Part shown: positions 56,661 through 63,570 of the stretch, in pieces | Position numbering within the stretch: the stretch's first letter is position 1 | Layout: each line of letters starts with the position of its first letter | Origin: a bacterium | GTDB lineage: Bacteria; Electryoneota; Electryoneia; Electryoneales; Electryoneaceae | Assembly: GCA_963669175.1 (NCBI GenBank) | Contig: OY769902.1 | Location: 3,936,001 to 4,000,000 of the forward strand | Direction of reading: 5' to 3' | Length of the DNA: 64,000 nt | The notes under the pieces: generated by a model | Told to the model about the DNA's origin: nothing | Database searches by the model: none | The model's input: only the letters and a program-made list of their open reading frames with translations | Translations under genes and position numbers: made by a program

Positions 56661-59600
56661 ATGCACCGTTGCTACCGTTTTCTGATTACTGCGATAGTCC
56701 TGACAGGTATCTTTTCCCTTCCCGCTTCTGGCGAAGTGTACGAGACCGGCTCGTTACGTGGTTTCATCCTGGGTGATGAACCAGCCTGTGCCTACGACAA
56801 CTGGTTTTCTCGTACCGTCGAAGGACTCGCAGTTGATGGTGGTTATAACGACCATATCCCCCCCGAACTTGATCCGCAAACACGTGGATTCGGGAATTTC
56901 GAATACATCGAAGAAGAAGATGCGGGCACCATGGAAGCGCTATGGCTGCATCTTTTTCAGGCATTGTGGCTCGGTGACCATGAGACGGCTGAAGGATTAA
57001 TCGGTGAGAATGAACTCCCTTACGAGTTTGTCTATTTCACAGACACAGAGACGGGCAATCAGTATTACATGTTGCGTGAATTGATTAACACCGCCTATGT
57101 GGATACAGGTTTTTACGCCGGTCCTGAAGATGATGTGATCGGCGGATTCGATTACGGTTGGGGTTTGTACATTGTTAATCCGGACGCTGAGTATCCGGGC
57201 GTAAATATCCAGGTTTGCCACGTCAATGACGACTTCATTGCCCCACCTTATGCCGTTGAGGCATTCCTTGAAGGTGATTTCAATTCACTGGCGCTTTGGG
57301 GAACCGGACGTGAAGTCATGTCGGTGGAAGGTGAAGATTACAACAACAGTCGTTCCCTGTCTGACCCGTCGCGAAACGGCAACCTGCCGTTCCAGTGGTT
57401 TACCGAGTTTTTCGTGGATACAACACGGAGCCAGGGACTGCATGACCTGGTAATACAGGTACACAGTTATGACACTGAATCCCACAACGGCGAGCCAACC
57501 CTGCAAGTCAGCGGCGGCAATGCAGACGGCTATCCGAACCGTCCCACACGCGACCTGTCCTATACGGGTTTTGATTGGGTGAATTGCTGTCCGACAATTA
57601 TGGTTCCGGCCAATTATTGCATGGAAGGTCAGGAGGAAGTTGAAGTCCAGGAAATGTTCGCCATCTGGCGTGGTTGGGGTGTCACTCACATTGAAAGTGG
57701 TGCAGGTATTTCCCGTGATTGCTATTTACCAGGATACCCGGACAGTCCGCAGATGTGGACTTGCAGAGAGAACACCAATTCTTATGAGACCTATGATCAC
57801 TGGCTGCATTTTGAATTGGATGAGCTTCCCTGGGCTTTGCAGGATGCTGAAATTACCGAGCTTGAATACTACGCCGGCACAGCGCCGCCAACAGAAGCGA
57901 ACTGGGCTGCATTTCTTCGCTATTTCGAGACAAGTTTAGAAGGCCTGGTTCAGAGCGTACATAACATGTACGAGTACCTGGATGAGACACCGCCAACCGC
58001 ACCACAATCTCCCTATATCTACTATGCCGGTGATAACTTCATGGAAATCGGCTGGAGTACACGTTCCTATGATCCCTATTTCCAGGCCTATGAGGTTTAT
58101 TTCGGAACCACGGAAACTATTAATCTGGACAACACTCTCTGGACAATACAGAACGACCCGAACCTGGTAGGGCAAAACCTTCAGTATACACGCGTTGAAG
58201 GATTGACACCCATGCAGAGTTATGGATTCCGGGTACGCGGTGTTGACATGTCCGGCAATGTGAGTGAATTGAGTACTGCGACCGCTTGGGGATTCAGCCA
58301 GGAAGGCAGCGCTTCTCCCCTGGCATTTGACCTGTTTGCACCGACCAGCGGCGACACCTGCCATACCCTGGATACGACACTGGTCTGGTACAGCACATCT
58401 GACCCGGATTTGTACGATATCCCCCGTTATGATGTATGGATGGATACGCTGGCAAACATGTCAACCATGTGGATGGTTGCGGATGGCGACAGCATCCAGG
58501 ATACTACAATTGATGTCAGCGGCCTGCTGAACTTCAAGGATTATTACTGGACTGTTCGCGCCACGGACCGGAACACGGAAGGCACATGGGCCAACGACAC
58601 CCTGTCTTTCCGGACCTACCGCCCGGTTCCACCAGCCGAATTCACGCAGGATTACCCGCTTGAACGCTCAACATTGTGGAACGTGGAAGAAACAGACCTG
58701 GTTTGGAATTCAACCTACGATCCGGATGGACTGGCCGATATCACTTACCAGGTATCCTGGGCAACAAATATAGAATTCACAGAGAATTACGGTTCATTCA
58801 CGACAACTGACACATTCACAACAATCGACGATCTGGAAATCAATGCTACCGTGTATTGGAGGGTCTTGGCCTGGGATAACCTGGACACGACCTGGACCGA
58901 CACATGGCGCTTTTATACCTGGACACCGGACTACCCAGAGTTTTCTCTTGACACTCCGACTGACGGAGAAACTGTCCTCAATGATACAGTAACAGTGACC
59001 TGGACTGCCCCGGAAACATCCTACCTGCCTGAAGATTTTGCATTGGCCGAACTGGATGAACAAACGTACGTAAATGCAGCCTTTGCTGACCTGCCAAAGG
59101 GGTCTGAGATTGCGTTCGGGGCTGGTGAATCCGAGCTGGATGATCATGGCGGTCCGGATTCCTTCGGACATGTCTGGATTGACAACAAGGAGCATGGCGG
59201 CCCGGCATTTGACTGGGTGGACATTTCCGAAATTGGAACCCTTTCAGATGCAAGCAATATCGATGATGGTTGCGCTCCGGCGACAATCCCCTTCCCGTTT
59301 ACCTATTATGGTGAGGAATACGAAACTGTCCATGTCGGTTCGAACGGAAACATGAACTTCCTCACCTCTGATGATGCCGACTGGAGCAATAGTGGCATCC
59401 CGAATGACGATGGTCCCTCCGCCATGATCGCACCGTTCTGGTGCGACCTGCGTCCGAATTATCGTGGCGACATCTACACCTGGGGTGACTCAACCATGTT
59501 TGTGGTGTCCTGGCTGAATATCCGTCAATACAGCCACGAAGAATGGGATTATTATTTCCAGGTAATCCTGTACCCTGACGGTATGATCAAGTTCCAGTAC

Positions 59601-61118
59601 CTGAACATGGACGGGGACCTGGATATCGCCTGTATCGGTATAGAGAACGGTGATGAGGATGACGGGTTGCAGGTTGTATACAATGCAGCGTACCTGGAAG
59701 ACAGGATCGCGATCCTCTTCACACCGGATGATTACCTGTATACGGTTGAATGGTCCGCTTCGGCAGAATTCGCACCCTCTACCCTTGAATACACACTGGA
59801 TAATGAATTCACCATTACCGATGTGGAAATTCAACAATTCCTTATACAGAACAGGTTGCTGGAAGAACTGGATGAACTTCCCGATGATATAACCATTTAC
59901 TGGCGTGTGAACACACGTAACTTGTACAGTCTTCGGAGTTTTGCAGCTCCCGGTATTAACGGCCAGACCTTCACAGTCTTTGTCCCGGAACCGCCGGTCG
60001 CTTTTGATATGGCCTACCCGGCAAATGAAGACACCGTTGTAACAGATACAGTGACAGTTGGCTGGAATGCAGCGTACGATCCAGATCCTGACGACACGTT
60101 GACGTACGTCGTTCAGTGGTCCCAAAACAGTGACTTCTCCGATTTTGCTGTGGCGACAACCCAAGATACTTTCCTGATCCTGACCGGAATGGATATGGAA
60201 GTATTCACCAGAAGCAACAGCTCAGAGTTTGCATCGGTTGCCCGTAAAAAGACGGCGCCACAAGCCATGCAGGTTAAGACCAAAAATCCATCCAAGGCCA
60301 GACAGATCTCGGGGACTGCCTTGTCAGGTGGTGCAACAGCGAATACACTTGACGAACTGGATGAGCTCCCGGATGACAGCCATATCTTCTGGCGGGTACA
60401 AGCGGTTGATGAGCTGAGAAACAGCGTATGGGCCAACCAGGGCACAGATGGCTGGTGGTTCCATGTGCAGGTGCCGGAACCGCCGCCTGCGTTCGCGCTA
60501 CTGGAACCGGAAAACGATGACACACTGGCTGTCGAAGAAGCCACCCCGGCCACACTTCGCTGGGAAGCGGCGAATGATCCGGACCCGAACGAAACAACCA
60601 GTTATAACCTGTATTACCAGTATACTCAGGGACAGGATACGGACACACTTTACTATAGCGATTTAGCAGACACAGCACTCGTCATCAACCTGGCGGACTC
60701 GCTGGGGATTGAGTATTGGGAAGAAACAATACAGGTCACCTGGTGGGTGCTGGCCGGTTCAGAAAATGACACAACGCAATGCGATGAGGATTTCATCTTC
60801 CACATCGCCCCGAATTCAGCAGTACCGGAAAAACCATTTGCAGGGATGCCAACGGAATACAGTATCGCAGCCCTGTACCCGAATCCGTTCAACCCGACAG
60901 CAACTGTGGTCGTGGGATTGCCCCAGGCCAGCCACCTGAAAGTACAGGTATACAACATTCTCGGTGAACTGGTTGAAACGGTTGTCAACAACGATATGCG
61001 AGCGGGGTATCACCGTCTGATCCTTGAGGGATCGAACTGGGCTTCCGGGCTCTATTTTGTTCGTGCCGAGAGTCCGGGACAGATGAATGAAGTACAGAGG
61101 ATTTTCCTGGTCAAATAA
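56661..61118 (+). CDS. Large (1485 aa) acidic secreted protein with a putative N-terminal hydrolase domain, FN3-like repeats and a T9SS sorting domain
   Basis: Signal peptide; repeats PxxFxLxxP...W...DPD...YWxV; C-terminal LYPNPFNP...ASGLYFV...IFLVK. Confidence 0.88.
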   Translation: MHRCYRFLITAIVLTGIFSLPASGEVYETGSLRGFILGDEPACAYDNWFSRTVEGLAVDGGYNDHIPPELDPQTRGFGNFEYIEEEDAGTMEALWLHLFQALWLGDHETAEGLIGENELPYEFVYFTDTETGNQYYMLRELINTAYVDTGFYAGPEDDVIGGFDYGWGLYIVNPDAEYPGVNIQVCHVNDDFIAPPYAVEAFLEGDFNSLALWGTGREVMSVEGEDYNNSRSLSDPSRNGNLPFQWFTEFFVDTTRSQGLHDLVIQVHSYDTESHNGEPTLQVSGGNADGYPNRPTRDLSYTGFDWVNCCPTIMVPANYCMEGQEEVEVQEMFAIWRGWGVTHIESGAGISRDCYLPGYPDSPQMWTCRENTNSYETYDHWLHFELDELPWALQDAEITELEYYAGTAPPTEANWAAFLRYFETSLEGLVQSVHNMYEYLDETPPTAPQSPYIYYAGDNFMEIGWSTRSYDPYFQAYEVYFGTTETINLDNTLWTIQNDPNLVGQNLQYTRVEGLTPMQSYGFRVRGVDMSGNVSELSTATAWGFSQEGSASPLAFDLFAPTSGDTCHTLDTTLVWYSTSDPDLYDIPRYDVWMDTLANMSTMWMVADGDSIQDTTIDVSGLLNFKDYYWTVRATDRNTEGTWANDTLSFRTYRPVPPAEFTQDYPLERSTLWNVEETDLVWNSTYDPDGLADITYQVSWATNIEFTENYGSFTTTDTFTTIDDLEINATVYWRVLAWDNLDTTWTDTWRFYTWTPDYPEFSLDTPTDGETVLNDTVTVTWTAPETSYLPEDFALAELDEQTYVNAAFADLPKGSEIAFGAGESELDDHGGPDSFGHVWIDNKEHGGPAFDWVDISEIGTLSDASNIDDGCAPATIPFPFTYYGEEYETVHVGSNGNMNFLTSDDADWSNSGIPNDDGPSAMIAPFWCDLRPNYRGDIYTWGDSTMFVVSWLNIRQYSHEEWDYYFQVILYPDGMIKFQYLNMDGDLDIACIGIENGDEDDGLQVVYNAAYLEDRIAILFTPDDYLYTVEWSASAEFAPSTLEYTLDNEFTITDVEIQQFLIQNRLLEELDELPDDITIYWRVNTRNLYSLRSFAAPGINGQTFTVFVPEPPVAFDMAYPANEDTVVTDTVTVGWNAAYDPDPDDTLTYVVQWSQNSDFSDFAVATTQDTFLILTGMDMEVFTRSNSSEFASVARKKTAPQAMQVKTKNPSKARQISGTALSGGATANTLDELDELPDDSHIFWRVQAVDELRNSVWANQGTDGWWFHVQVPEPPPAFALLEPENDDTLAVEEATPATLRWEAANDPDPNETTSYNLYYQYTQGQDTDTLYYSDLADTALVINLADSLGIEYWEETIQVTWWVLAGSENDTTQCDEDFIFHIAPNSAVPEKPFAGMPTEYSIAALYPNPFNPTATVVVGLPQASHLKVQVYNILGELVETVVNNDMRAGYHRLILEGSNWASGLYFVRAESPGQMNEVQRIFLVK

Positions 61119-61139
61119 GGAAATACTTCCGGTAGGTTT
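61118..61139 (+). repeat. Left terminal inverted repeat AGGAAATACTTCCGGTAGGTTT
   Basis: Matches the reverse complement of 62886-62907 with one mismatch. Confidence 0.9.
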
Positions 61140-61217
61140 GGCGATTTGCTTCTTGTTTGCGACCTTTGTATTCGGGTTGGCAATCGGAAGCGATCGCGTA
61201 ACATGCTGGAGGACAAG

Positions 61218-62051
61218 ATGTTACATACTTCAACGAGCCTGTATGACCGGTGTATGGAGAAGACGCCGGAGCAGGTGTTTGTGAACTCGCTTCGTCGCGA
61301 GTTTGAGCTTTCACCGGCTGCGAGTACGGGGATATTGGAGCTTGCCAAGCGTTGTTTGTTCGGTACGATGCCGTCAACGCTTGGCAAGCTTCGTTTTTTA
61401 TGTGCGTCCAAGAAAGCTCGTCACGGTCGTCCCTTACGCGAACAAGACCTGATTCGTGTCGAACTGACACTGGATGACGGTGTTGAGGACTTGGATGTTC
61501 TGCGCGAACTGGGCGCTTCATCGCTTCGTCAGCAACGGATTCTTCGGCTAACCGAAGAGACGTACCAGCAGGGTGGGTTGCTGACACAGGAGGATCTGAG
61601 TCGTCTGCTGCACGTTTCAGATCGGACCATCCGCAAGGATATTGCGTTGCTGCTTGCTGACGGGAATACGGTGCATACGCGTGGCTACGACCATGACATT
61701 GGGCGTGGGTTATCGCACAAGGCACGGATCGTTGATTTGTACCTGGGTGGCCGGACCTATGATGAGATCATCCGTCTGACACGTCACAGCGCGTTTGCGA
61801 TCAAGCGCTATGTGAGTACGTTTGGACGCTTGTTGCTTCTGCTTAGCCATGACATTACCGAGCTGACCGACCTGAGCCGTCTGCTTCAACAGAGCGAACG
61901 GTTGACGGGTGAGTACCTGGATCTGTTTGCAAAATACAAACAGGGTGATCACTGGCCGACAAGCTATGTCGAACTTCTGGAGCAGTTGCAAGCACAGTAT
62001 CCCTCAAAAAAAAGAGCGGGACAAGGTGGCGGAGGCGTCCATGAAAACTGA
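61218..62051 (+). CDS. DUF1670-like protein A
   Basis: ETYQQGGLLTQEDLSRLL..SDRTIRKDI, TRG..DIG..SHK, RHS..AIKRY, recognised from memory of the family; GGAGG RBS before ATG 61218. Confidence 0.8.
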   Translation: MLHTSTSLYDRCMEKTPEQVFVNSLRREFELSPAASTGILELAKRCLFGTMPSTLGKLRFLCASKKARHGRPLREQDLIRVELTLDDGVEDLDVLRELGASSLRQQRILRLTEETYQQGGLLTQEDLSRLLHVSDRTIRKDIALLLADGNTVHTRGYDHDIGRGLSHKARIVDLYLGGRTYDEIIRLTRHSAFAIKRYVSTFGRLLLLLSHDITELTDLSRLLQQSERLTGEYLDLFAKYKQGDHWPTSYVELLEQLQAQYPSKKRAGQGGGGVHEN

Positions 62052-62871
62052 GGTACGGAACCGTTATGAATCCCTGCCGAAGCGGAACTTTCGCACTGCG
62101 ATCATCCGGTTGTTGGAAGAGCAGTACAAGATTCTTGGCAGCCACAAGGTCTTGGCCATGGTGGCGGATGACATCATGCAACTGCACCGTGAGTTCTATC
62201 CGGATATCGAGCAACGCAGCGGTGGCAGTATTGTGTGGCGTACGACAGGTGCACAGTGCCACAAGCCCAGCTATGGGACACGGGTAGAAGACTATGAGGT
62301 GAAGACCGTCATTCTTCCGCTTGTCACTGAAGAAGATGTGGTTGATCGTATTCGTCGCCACTATGGAAAAGACGGTGCGGGCAAACAGCGCGACAGGGAT
62401 ATTGCAGTGCTGGCGCGGTTGGTGAAAAGCGCGTACGAACAAGGCGGGTTATTAAGCGGCGCGGAATTGAGTGTGTTGTTGAACCGGTCGCTGACGACCA
62501 TTGGCAAGTACATCCAACAGTATCATGAAACGCATGATGACATCCTGCCGACGAAAGGAATCATGTTGGACCAGGGAAGCCGTCCCACACACAAGGCCGC
62601 AATCATTGACCTGTACGAACAGGGCTATCCGGAACCGGATATCGCTCGCTTGACCACGCATACCCTTGAAGCGGTGGGTCGTTACTTGCGATCTTACAAA
62701 AACATCAAGTTCCTGATGGTCAAAGAACTTAATCTGATGGAAATTGTGCGTACTACCGGACTCGGACGTAGTACAGTGGTCCAATATCAGAAACTGGTGA
62801 TGCAGTATCATCCTGACCTTAAACCTAAAGATAAACAAAAAGATACAACGAAAAAGGACAAGAAAAAGTAA
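62041..62871 (+). CDS. DUF1670-like protein B
   Basis: AYEQGGLLSGAELSVLLNRSLTTI, PTKG..DQG..THK, THT..AVGRY; GGAGG RBS; overlaps the ORF A stop. Confidence 0.8.
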   Translation: MKTEVRNRYESLPKRNFRTAIIRLLEEQYKILGSHKVLAMVADDIMQLHREFYPDIEQRSGGSIVWRTTGAQCHKPSYGTRVEDYEVKTVILPLVTEEDVVDRIRRHYGKDGAGKQRDRDIAVLARLVKSAYEQGGLLSGAELSVLLNRSLTTIGKYIQQYHETHDDILPTKGIMLDQGSRPTHKAAIIDLYEQGYPEPDIARLTTHTLEAVGRYLRSYKNIKFLMVKELNLMEIVRTTGLGRSTVVQYQKLVMQYHPDLKPKDKQKDTTKKDKKK

Positions 62872-62885
62872 CCACTATCAACTGA

Positions 62886-62907
62886 AAACCTACCGGAAAT
62901 ATTTCCT
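62886..62907 (-). repeat. Right terminal inverted repeat (AAACCTACCGGAAATATTTCCT on the plus strand)
   Basis: Inverted copy of 61118-61139; contains the perfect palindrome GGAAATATTTCC. Confidence 0.9.
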
Positions 62908-62944
62908 AATAGTAAGTAGAACAGGTTTCAGATTCTAGAACCTC

Positions 62945-62972
62945 GAGATCCCCGGTCAGGCTCGGGAATGAC
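62945..62972. repeat. Degenerate REP-like palindrome
   Basis: GAGATCCCCGGTCAGGCTCGGGAATGAC resembles the GATCCC...GGGA(A)TGAC extragenic palindrome type. Single copy in this window. Confidence 0.35.
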
Positions 62973-63020
62973 ATGATGGAACATGGTTGACAAGCTTTAC
63001 TGCTATTCCCTTCATTCACG

Positions 63021-63056
63021 AAAGCGGGACTGACATCGTTGTCAGTCCCGCTTTTT
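63021..63056. terminator. Intrinsic terminator, probably bidirectional
   Basis: AAAGCGGGACTGACA-TCGT-TGTCAGTCCCGCTTT plus TT, lying between convergent genes. Confidence 0.85.
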
Positions 63057-63075
63057 ATCTCAAAAAATCGTACTC

Positions 63076-63570
63076 TCAATCCTGTTTGACAATCTGCACC
63101 ATCTTGAACTCTTCCAGACGGTCAGTCCGTTTCACACGTTTGCCTTCGATAAGCGGCGGATGGTACCAGGCATAATCCACATGTCCCTGTGCGGATGCCA
63201 GGATCAGGCAATCCGGCTTGGCCACCTGGTACAGAAATTCGCTATCCTGAGGATTGGCGTAAGCATGAATTATTTTCGTCTTTTCATCGAGCCATGCCTT
63301 TCCTTTCCCGGAATGCAGACGTAACGCTACTCCCTTGGGAAGGACTCCATTCAGTTTGGCGACCAGCGCTTCTTTCTTTTCGACATTATCTCCAAAACCA
63401 ATATACACAAGATGCCTGATTTCCAAACCATCCAGCTTTACATCCTGCTGGCCGGGATTACGAATCTGCACCCATTCATCGTTCAGGATTTCGTTGGGTA
63501 CCCACTTGTTCATCCACGCATGCTTTTTTCGTGGTTGAACCATCGCAGCTTCAATAAAGATAACAGGCAT
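63076..63570 (-). CDS. Lamin-tail-domain-like protein
   Basis: LNDEWVQIRNPGQQDVKLDGLEI...LRLHSGKG...VD pattern; GAGGGG upstream. Confidence 0.6.
   Translation of the reverse strand: MPVIFIEAAMVQPRKKHAWMNKWVPNEILNDEWVQIRNPGQQDVKLDGLEIRHLVYIGFGDNVEKKEALVAKLNGVLPKGVALRLHSGKGKAWLDEKTKIIHAYANPQDSEFLYQVAKPDCLILASAQGHVDYAWYHPPLIEGKRVKRTDRLEEFKMVQIVKQD

Follow-up and report, generated by a model that had tools for sequence, protein, structure and literature searches.

An insertion element encoding only a pair of DUF1670 proteins at the ends of type IX secretion sorting-domain genes

What moves a DNA element that has the ends of an insertion sequence (IS) and encodes no recognizable transposase? The question is raised by a 1790-bp segment in a genome of the family Electryoneaceae (assembly GCA_963669175.1, contig OY769902.1), within the 64,000-nt stretch from position 3,936,001 to 4,000,000 of the forward strand, which is called the window here. 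The segment is bounded by 22-bp inverted repeats, holds two overlapping open reading frames (ORFs) of the family DUF1670, named ORF A and ORF B, and lies directly behind a gene for a secreted protein with a sorting domain of the type IX secretion system (T9SS). Coordinates are window positions, except those marked C1, which refer to the single 5.45-Mb contig of the host genome. We read the segment as a copy of an insertion element that is active, autonomous and site-specific and belongs to an undescribed family, and the probability of this whole working model is put at roughly 0.55.

The initial annotation had described an IS-like mobile element with nearly perfect inverted repeats, and its ends were borne out by the sequence and by a repeat search. 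The two repeats (21 of 22 bases identical) are matched beyond chance and form the sole long-range pair in 60900-63200. The host genome contains seven copies of the exact 1790-bp element with 0 to 5 substitutions relative to the window copy, and the sequences flanking these copies are unrelated past the nearest few bases. The exact repeat motif occurs in the genome only at the 14 ends of the seven copies. In public contigs from the same study, 61113-62915 forms a separate unitig of 1803 bp with 5.5 to 6.4 times the depth of its flanks. The element is almost certainly mobile and was recently active. Further copies had been suggested as a check and were found, but not with the differing 4-bp flanks sought, all of them being flanked alike.

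Other relatives of the element are also present in the host genome. One intact single-copy relative, 67% identical, is located at C1:~3751530-3753325 on the minus strand (L008) and has the tail AAACGT. It sits at the Lys-stop of another T9SS gene, with GTGAAATA on its left and AAGTAG on its right, and the outer end of its right repeat has degenerated. A left-end fragment of 152 nt with 78% identity was found at C1:2071034-2071185 (L009) behind AAGTA, so the five bases preceding the left repeat are not invariably AAATA. At C1:800637 and C1:2946991, T9SS genes ending in AAATA are followed only by the first ~15 nt of the left repeat. The fragment and the two short remnants are probably scars of lost copies.

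Relatives are numerous and patchily distributed. ORF B has 1628 relatives at E <= 0.001 in a protein collection clustered at 90%; the 120 listed among them are 64-100% identical, and most of these lie on contigs of 1-2.5 kb, which is the usual sign of repeats breaking assemblies. PF07900, the Pfam model of DUF1670, is carried by only three of 79 genomes of the host phylum, many of which are fragmented metagenome-assembled genomes (MAGs) in which repeats are often unassembled. A tblastn search of ORF B against a plasmid collection gave no match. Genome contigs queried with an alignment yielded 29 loci in named MAGs, where the single ORF B query had found none. These loci span KSB1, Ignavibacteriaceae, Melioribacteraceae, Bacteroidota, Neomarinimicrobiota, Caldithrix, Lentisphaeria and Fibrobacteres, with eight copies supplied by one complete MAG of 6.5 Mb, and elements about 65-70% identical were seen in KSB1, Ignavibacteria, Bacteroidota, Neomarinimicrobiota and Lentisphaeria. 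Being multi-copy, patchy and present in many phyla, the element is IS-like as first proposed, with the DUF1670 pair as its only conserved genes; the proposed 4-bp target duplication did not hold, as set out below. For comparison of the junctions we compiled 31 distinct insertions with both ends, composed of the seven local copies and the related loci.

The insertions share one kind of target. In the window, the stop codon TAA of the interrupted gene (61116-61118) consists of the last two bases of the 5-mer AAATA and the first A of the left repeat, and the last 120 aa of the encoded protein match TIGR04183 (Por_Secre_tail) with 35.9 bits against a cut-off of 23. Two of the 31 insertions are cut by a contig end; in 28 of the 29 assessable ones an in-frame ORF with a T9SS sorting-domain end (...SG.YF......K..L.K/R) lies upstream, the remaining one (L051) not being at an ORF end. 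A regular expression for the N-terminal motif of the domain was positive in 25 of the 31 upstream ORFs, and several of the others are cut by contig ends. As far as assessed, the element is always co-oriented with the T9SS cargo gene and directly behind it. By regular expression, 239 ORFs of the host genome have a T9SS-type C-terminal domain, and most end in L[LVMI]K-stop. Very likely, the element is directed, in one orientation, to the Lys/Arg codon and stop with which T9SS sorting-domain genes end. The 5-mer and the first A of the repeat rebuild Lys-TAA; because the element supplies AAATA(A), the host ORF stays intact.

The orthologous locus of a same-genus genome is syntenic and empty. It encodes a T9SS protein ending ...RKMMLVR and a convergent gene of 165 aa, and reads ...ATGCTGGTGAGGTAG followed by a tandem 9-mer array. 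As this region is only ~70% identical, it represents an unoccupied gene end and not the pre-insertion allele.

Purine-rich tandem arrays with units of 8-9 nt (GAAAGTAAA, AAAAGGTAA, AAAAGTGAA) begin a few bases past many T9SS stop codons. They were observed in the host genome (on C1 for example at 2090142, 3357370, 4184316 and 4741323) and in the same-genus relative (L059:1050-1130). Each unit resembles a Lys codon plus stop; the arrays may act as decoys, be traces left by the element or have no connection with it.

The bases adjoining the repeats reveal how the element is inserted. AATA is present directly outside both repeats, at 61114-61117 and 62908-62911, and had been taken for a target duplication. 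However, the immediate flanks are identical in all seven copies, which read T-N-AAATA, then the element, then AATAGTAA[AG]T[AG]. Across the 31 insertions the left 5-mer is AAATA in 27 and AGATA or CGATA in four, and the tail following the right repeat is AATAGT in 13, AAACGT in 12, AATAGA in five and AACAGT in one, the first four bases thus being AATA in 18 and AAAC or AACA in 13. The hexamer next to the tail is a Lys/Arg codon plus stop in 30 of the 31. In the seven near-identical copies this hexamer varies (AAATAG four times, AAGTGA twice, AAGTAG once) while the left 5-mer is always AAATA, and one copy continues from AAGTGA into a purine-rich 9-mer array of the kind found behind many uninterrupted T9SS genes. 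Left and right 5-mers differ in ten insertions, three of them among the seven near-identical copies, which rules out duplication by gap repair.

The variable hexamer beside a constant 5-mer, the differing 5-mers and the copy adjoining the array are read most simply if the right hexamer represents the last codon and stop of the host gene itself, and if the element, made up of 5-mer, left repeat, interior, right repeat and tail, was inserted immediately before that codon. Its limits, as read here, are 61113-62913, about 1801 bp. The AATA on both sides is a coincidence of this subfamily, in which AAATA ends with these four bases and the tail AATAGT begins with them, and it is most probably not a target duplication. 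Arg-type 5-mers pair with Arg-stop targets (4 of 4) and Lys-type ones with Lys-stop targets. This likeness is not random and suggests that identity to a short element-borne core has a part in the choice of target, as in conservative site-specific recombination or in IS110/IS1111, IS200/IS605 and IS607. We read the insertion as guided by core homology, specific in orientation and without true duplication.

Both ORFs match PF07900 far above its cut-off of 25 bits (155 for ORF A over profile positions 45-220; 166 for ORF B over 1-220), which confirms the earlier assignment to two overlapping DUF1670 paralogues; they share 36% identity over 106 aa. Judged from 18 aligned homologues, ORF A most likely starts at the ATG at 61218 behind GGAGG rather than at 61146. 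The ATG of ORF B overlaps the end of ORF A by 11 nt, and stop and start usually overlap in the relatives as well, which suggests translational coupling. The two-ORF layout is kept in 23 of 25 elements, and both ORFs are strongly conserved and intact in every copy. B is offset from the frame of A by +1 in some elements and by -1 in others, and one natural A-B fused element was found (L037). Together with the run of A residues in the overlap, the variable offset would fit transcriptional slippage giving some A-B fusion, as in several IS families. Upstream of ORF A, the leader contains a promoter-like site (61177-61204, promoter scan) and the Shine-Dalgarno sequence GGAGG (61208-61212). The motif (T/A)ACCGGA(A/G)G of the terminal repeat recurs twice in the leader, where the last copy overlaps the ribosome-binding site, and this layout would suit end recognition combined with autoregulation.

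No DDE, HUH or serine-recombinase motif had been seen in the two ORFs at first inspection, and profile searches agree, as do fold searches outside the poorly modelled N-terminal 110 residues. Pfam and NCBIfam returned only DUF1670 and helix-turn-helix (HTH) families (HTH_11/DeoR-like, HTH_23/28/29 and a weak resolvase-type HTH_7, PF02796). A DDE or other transposase family was absent from Pfam matches at E up to 1, and in NCBIfam only an IS21 HTH appeared below threshold, with 13 bits against a cut-off of 160. Neither ORF has a DEDD domain (PF01548/PF02371), an HUH Y1 domain (PF01797) or a serine-recombinase domain (PF00239) in Pfam, the weak PF02796 being the only resolvase-type match. A tyrosine recombinase was found neither in Pfam (PF00589) nor among the listed fold matches, a list that cannot exclude this family. 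The conserved residues R126, K185, H207, R214, Y215 and Y249 are present in the protein, but their spacing and the predicted fold misfit the R-K-H-R-H/W-Y pattern of tyrosine recombinases. PHROGs gave a weak regulator match for ORF A and none for ORF B. Among the homologues inspected, the source names are 'DUF1670 domain-containing protein' (NCBI, JGI), 'hypothetical protein' and, in one spurious case, 'GIY-YIG endonuclease' (JGI); none is called a transposase. The last label, given to P0107, was rejected, as this protein is a partial A-B fusion without such a domain. A hidden antisense third gene was likewise rejected: the longest antisense ORFs in four elements are below 90 aa and none is conserved.

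An AlphaFold model of ORF B (mean predicted local distance difference test score, pLDDT, 70) comprises helices at 17-27 and 35-52, a beta hairpin at 63-70/87-93 and three HTH or winged-HTH units at ~113-177, 180-230 and 210-265. Foldseek searches of this model against the PDB returned nothing at E <= 0.001, and VIA-align listed only HTH proteins, with Z up to 6.2, over residues 94-273. Longer relatives are A-B fusions of 485-544 aa, triple DUF1670 proteins of 930-952 aa and proteins with DUF1670 behind ~190 unannotated residues, and no known enzyme domain was found in any of these longer members. H184 and Y215 do not vary among 76 diverse full-length members with 23-47% identity to ORF B, and H207, G179, Y249, R126, K185, G62, P170, D177 and G173 are conserved in at least 93%. 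The resulting signature, [KR]-G-x3-D-x-G-x3-[ST]-H-K ... H-[ST]-x6-R-Y, is common to A-type and B-type proteins. Tyr9, in an unstructured N-terminal segment, is invariant in ORF A and ORF B of the close homologues of Fibrobacteres-Chlorobi-Bacteroidetes (FCB) type (16 and 18 sequences); a Tyr also heads the family-wide consensus and is invariant in an alignment of distant subfamilies (A4). Ser11 of ORF B is conserved too. The conserved residues could be catalytic, and equally could bind DNA. A predicted A-B complex scored 0.33 against 0.00 for the best control, with at least 61% contact agreement between runs and partner pLDDT of at least 65. In calibration 58 of 80 solved complexes passed this mark, as did 2 of 110 mismatched pairs; at 0.60 or less there were 7 of the 80 and both mismatches. 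A pass at so low a score is wrong more often than it is right unless a partnership was already likely, and the prediction offers weak support, a hint, for an A-B complex.

The association of the proteins with their ends extends to distant subfamilies. A second set of 80 metagenome loci was gathered with the ten-sequence alignment A4. Tandem A-type and B-type signatures, 815-881 nt apart, are present in 36 of them, and 19 of these have a run of A7-9 or G7 between the signatures. The proposal that other tandem DUF1670 loci be inspected for terminal inverted repeats was rewarding: 67 loci were 1.7 kb or longer, and 31 of these had pairs scoring at least 13 and spanning 1.3-2.8 kb, against 4 of 40 shuffled controls, though by eye a dozen or so of the 31 resemble chance pairs. 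The convincing pairs are built from a palindrome of ~12 bp followed by GGTAG(G), the sequence being specific to the subfamily (GCGAATTCGC-GGGTAGGG, GCCAAATGGC-AGGTAGT and GGCGTATGTCC-GGTAGG, for example). That the design of the repeats tracks the DUF1670 subfamily argues that proteins and ends evolve together and that the DUF1670 genes are not passengers. A few bases outside both repeats are conserved between independent loci of one subfamily, and insertion at specific sites thus seems common to the family.

Two of the distant subfamilies show features of their own. Loci L095, L101, L102 and L076-L078, with the repeat AGGCCATATGACC, have the same asymmetric outer bases, ACTATT/AGG ... CCT/TATTT (the slash marking the junction), and their ORFs run the opposite way relative to these bases; the interior may have been inverted between the repeats during evolution. 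Their targets are AT-rich, AAAT(T/A)N, and are not gene ends. Four independent loci with the repeat TAGCGCAGAATTGCGG (L109, L111, L112 and L126) share the flanks TTATCAG before and TTTCA(C/G)TTT.GGGG after the element, and two of the four run on into a repeat of GTCATTGCGAG type, which suggests that this subfamily homes to a repeated extragenic sequence.

In the working model, the two translationally coupled DUF1670 proteins would act as multi-HTH DNA binders, some of them possibly joined as an A-B fusion through the A8 run. They would recognize the 22-bp subterminal repeats, with their palindrome and GGTAGG, and the related sites in the leader. The ends would then be paired, probably in an excised or circular form in which right repeat, tail AATAGT, core AAATA and left repeat are joined, and strand exchange would take place at or beside the 5-nt core. 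Insertion would occur in one orientation, exactly before the last codon (Lys or Arg) and the stop of a gene with a T9SS sorting domain, chosen partly by the likeness of the AAATA core to a target AARTR. As the element brings a Lys codon and a stop along, the host protein would remain unchanged, and no target bases would be duplicated. It is likely that the repeats are bound, and the ends brought together, by A and B, and we infer the excised or circular form. Whether DUF1670 itself cleaves and joins DNA is close to an even question, with the odds if anything slightly against. Tentatively, and somewhat less probably still, DUF1670 may represent a further class of transposase or recombinase unrelated to the DDE, DEDD, HUH, serine and tyrosine enzymes, which would work as an A/B hetero-oligomer or A-B fusion by conservative, core-guided insertion in one orientation, with subfamilies tuned to different short targets.

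Several observations weigh against this model. No catalytic domain or motif was found in the DUF1670 proteins. The invariant residues H184, K185, H207, Y215, Y249, R126 and D177 lie in or beside HTH helices of the predicted structure, where DNA recognition alone could account for them. The N-terminal 120 residues of ORF B, modelled alone, reach a pLDDT of only 52, and fold searches say little on the N-terminal 110. None of the eight occupied targets in the genome ends in TAA, though about half of the T9SS genes do, and the model leaves this bias unexplained. Among the public contigs aligned to the stretch there is no circle junction and no joint that skips the element, which bears on excision neither way, as contigs drop rare forms. 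The family may also have been described earlier, as it was set apart by hidden Markov model (HMM), fold and literature searches and not by comparison with ISfinder.

The most serious alternative is that the element is non-autonomous, with the DUF1670 pair only binding the ends, picking the target or regulating, while the DNA is cut and joined by an enzyme encoded elsewhere, for example a host recombinase of Xer or other type, a topoisomerase or a foreign transposase. This would account for the lack of a catalytic domain in both proteins and in the fused forms and for the position of the conserved residues in HTH regions, and it has a parallel in the Xer-dependent integrative elements that carry only an HTH activator. 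On the other hand, the repeat motif is confined to the 14 ends of the seven copies and shared by no other element type, and a compatible helper would be needed in KSB1, Ignavibacteria, Bacteroidota, Neomarinimicrobiota and Lentisphaeria alike. Conservation of both ORFs, intact in every copy, also speaks against this explanation, and no two-arm dif-like layout was recognized by eye at junction or target, no Xer-site model having been run. On balance we regard it as the less likely of the two.

A classical IS making a 4-bp AATA duplication at a preferred site AAATAGTAARTR, through a conventional cut-and-paste or copy-paste transposase, is highly improbable. AATA does adjoin both repeats in all seven copies and follows the right repeat in 18 of the 31 insertions. 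In the remaining 13, AAAC or AACA takes its place, and the Lys/Arg-plus-stop hexamer of 30 insertions is left unexplained. The required target of 12-13 nt occurs unoccupied once in the 5.45 Mb, not at a T9SS gene, whereas a 12-mer with two positions of two-fold degeneracy should turn up ~2.6 times by chance. Among 34 unoccupied T9SS genes ending in AAATAG, none continues with TAARTR as it would have to. The empty site predicted by the initial annotation (GTCAAATAGTAAGTAG) fared no better, as the same-genus empty locus ends ...GTGAGGTAG, without the motif. Still less credible is an element no longer mobile: a cassette, perhaps a pair of regulators of T9SS cargo genes, that was domesticated and multiplied through duplication or gene conversion. 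This would fit the constant position and orientation behind cargo genes and the likeness of the proteins to transcription factors, but not flanks that have nothing in common past the last codons, copies only 0-5 nt apart while host genes differ throughout, the empty orthologous site of the sister species, or the patchy occurrence of the same element in other phyla.

The site-specific insertion element that we favor can be compared to several known systems. The IS110/IS1111 elements are moved by a DEDD transposase with a bridge or seeker RNA (PMC11187229, PMC11208160). Our element resembles them in sequence- and orientation-specific insertion without real duplication, in a short core common to element and target and in the circular junction to be expected, and the IS1111 group in particular in its subterminal inverted repeats. 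It differs from them in the absence of DEDD domains (Transposase_9/Transposase_20), in having two HTH proteins instead of one enzyme, and in lacking a long non-coding region, the leader being only 78 nt; a search of Rfam for a guide RNA, at E up to 1, turned up matches of chance level only.

In IS3 and IS1, overlapping ORFs with an A-run encode OrfA, which is rich in HTH, OrfB and a frameshifted OrfAB that is the DDE transposase. Size (1.3-1.8 kb), terminal inverted repeats, two overlapping ORFs, a conserved A-run and a first ORF rich in HTH are similar in our element, but ORF B has no RNase-H/DDE domain, no duplication of fixed length is made and the target site is strict. The A-B frame offset varies as well, and slippage during transcription would account for this better than would a fixed -1 ribosomal frameshift. 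Tn7 inserts at attTn7 downstream of glmS through TnsD, with a 5-bp duplication and five proteins that include a DDE-type transposase. Both elements use a 'safe haven' at a conserved 3' coding end and leave the gene product unharmed; the element described here has 239 T9SS-tail ORFs as possible sites in the genome and only two small proteins.

Like IS200/IS605 and IS607, it makes no duplication and inserts beside a short specific sequence resembling one element end, but it has no HUH Y1 or serine-recombinase domain, and its ends are true 22-bp inverted repeats and not same-strand hairpins. The Xer-dependent integrative elements (IMEX) have no recombinase gene of their own and carry an HTH factor. 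Mobility without a recognizable recombinase gene and with an HTH factor is shared with them, unlike the target, which is a gene end and not dif, and the many sites and copies per genome. The element is thus closest in its working to the duplication-free, site-specific IS110/IS1111, IS607 and IS200/IS605, IS3/IS1-like in layout and Tn7-like in strategy. Near-identical copies, inverted repeats and only two conserved ORFs, whose role in movement we infer, are found as in insertion sequences generally, and the enzyme feature that defines each of the compared IS families is absent as far as HMMs can tell. In the library searched, DUF1670 and PF07900 are mentioned in no paper, and wider searches on site-specific IS and T9SS, new IS families and IS of Methanosarcina yielded nothing relevant as judged from titles and the openings of abstracts.

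The features are listed in Table 1. To the right of the element, a perfect hairpin lies between the displaced end of the T9SS gene and a convergent gene at 63076-63570. It is probably the original bidirectional terminator of the two genes, now split off from the T9SS gene by the element. Just outside the right end, a GC-rich motif of ~40 nt (ctcgagatccccggtcaggctcgggaatgaca...) at 62938-62985 recurs at more than 30 genome sites with 82-97% identity, partly in tandem clusters (C1:3573330-3573694 and C1:2312032-2312187, for example), and looks like a family of repetitive extragenic palindromic (REP)-like repeats.

Table 1. Features of the DUF1670 element and its insertion site, in window positions.
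Feature	Positions	Strand	Evidence and remarks
Host target gene, secreted protein of 1485 aa with C-terminal T9SS type A sorting domain	56661-61118	+	ORF list
Left 5-mer 'core' AAATA (Lys codon + TA)	61113-61117	+	Same in 7 of 7 copies; read as element-borne; repeat unitig starts at 61113
Left inverted repeat AGGAAATACTTCCGGTAGGTTT	61118-61139	+	12-bp near-palindrome then GGTAGG; kept in 24 distinct related elements
Leader	61140-61217	+	Two degenerate internal copies of the end motif ACCGGA(A/G)G, ~61180-61191 and 61201-61214 (left-end alignment)
ORF A, 277 aa, A-type DUF1670 paralogue; own N-terminal region then HTH units	61218-62051	+	PF07900, E 2e-45
A8 homopolymer in the ORF A/ORF B overlap, candidate slippage site for A-B fusion	62006-62013	+	A8 or A9 there in 26 of 26 elements
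ORF B, 276 aa, canonical full-length DUF1670; N-terminal domain then three HTH/winged-HTH units	62041-62871	+	PF07900, E 9e-49
Right inverted repeat, reverse complement AGGAAATATTTCCGGTAGGTTT	62886-62907	+	Matches left repeat at 21 of 22 bases
Right 'tail' AATAGT, 6 nt	62908-62913	+	Read as element-borne; constant within subfamily, differs between subfamilies
AAGTAG, read as the host's original Lys codon + stop, displaced by the insertion	62914-62919	+	Hexamer varies among the 7 copies
Perfect 15-bp hairpin then T run	63021-63054	.	Repeat search and sequence

To our knowledge, the well-studied prokaryotic insertion sequences all rely on a small set of enzyme classes for their movement. The DUF1670 family behaves like an insertion sequence, yet shows none of these known classes. 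It is large, with 749 clusters at 50% identity in a library of 1.84 billion proteins, and its members are found in Bacteroidota, Chloroflexota, Planctomycetota, methanogens and others according to automatic Atlas labels. The element is read as a new insertion sequence, and there is a substantial chance that its enzyme is categorically new. Its nature as a repeat element explains why DUF1670 genes break metagenome assemblies, and homing to the last codon with a replacement codon and stop would provide hundreds of harmless landing sites in each T9SS host. If the pair is catalytic, it would constitute a new recombinase that is compact (~550 aa in total), uses a defined short site in one orientation and makes no duplications, and it would be of interest for genome engineering. 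If it is not, the family would represent a widespread way to hijack a host enzyme. Either way, DUF1670 gains a testable function.

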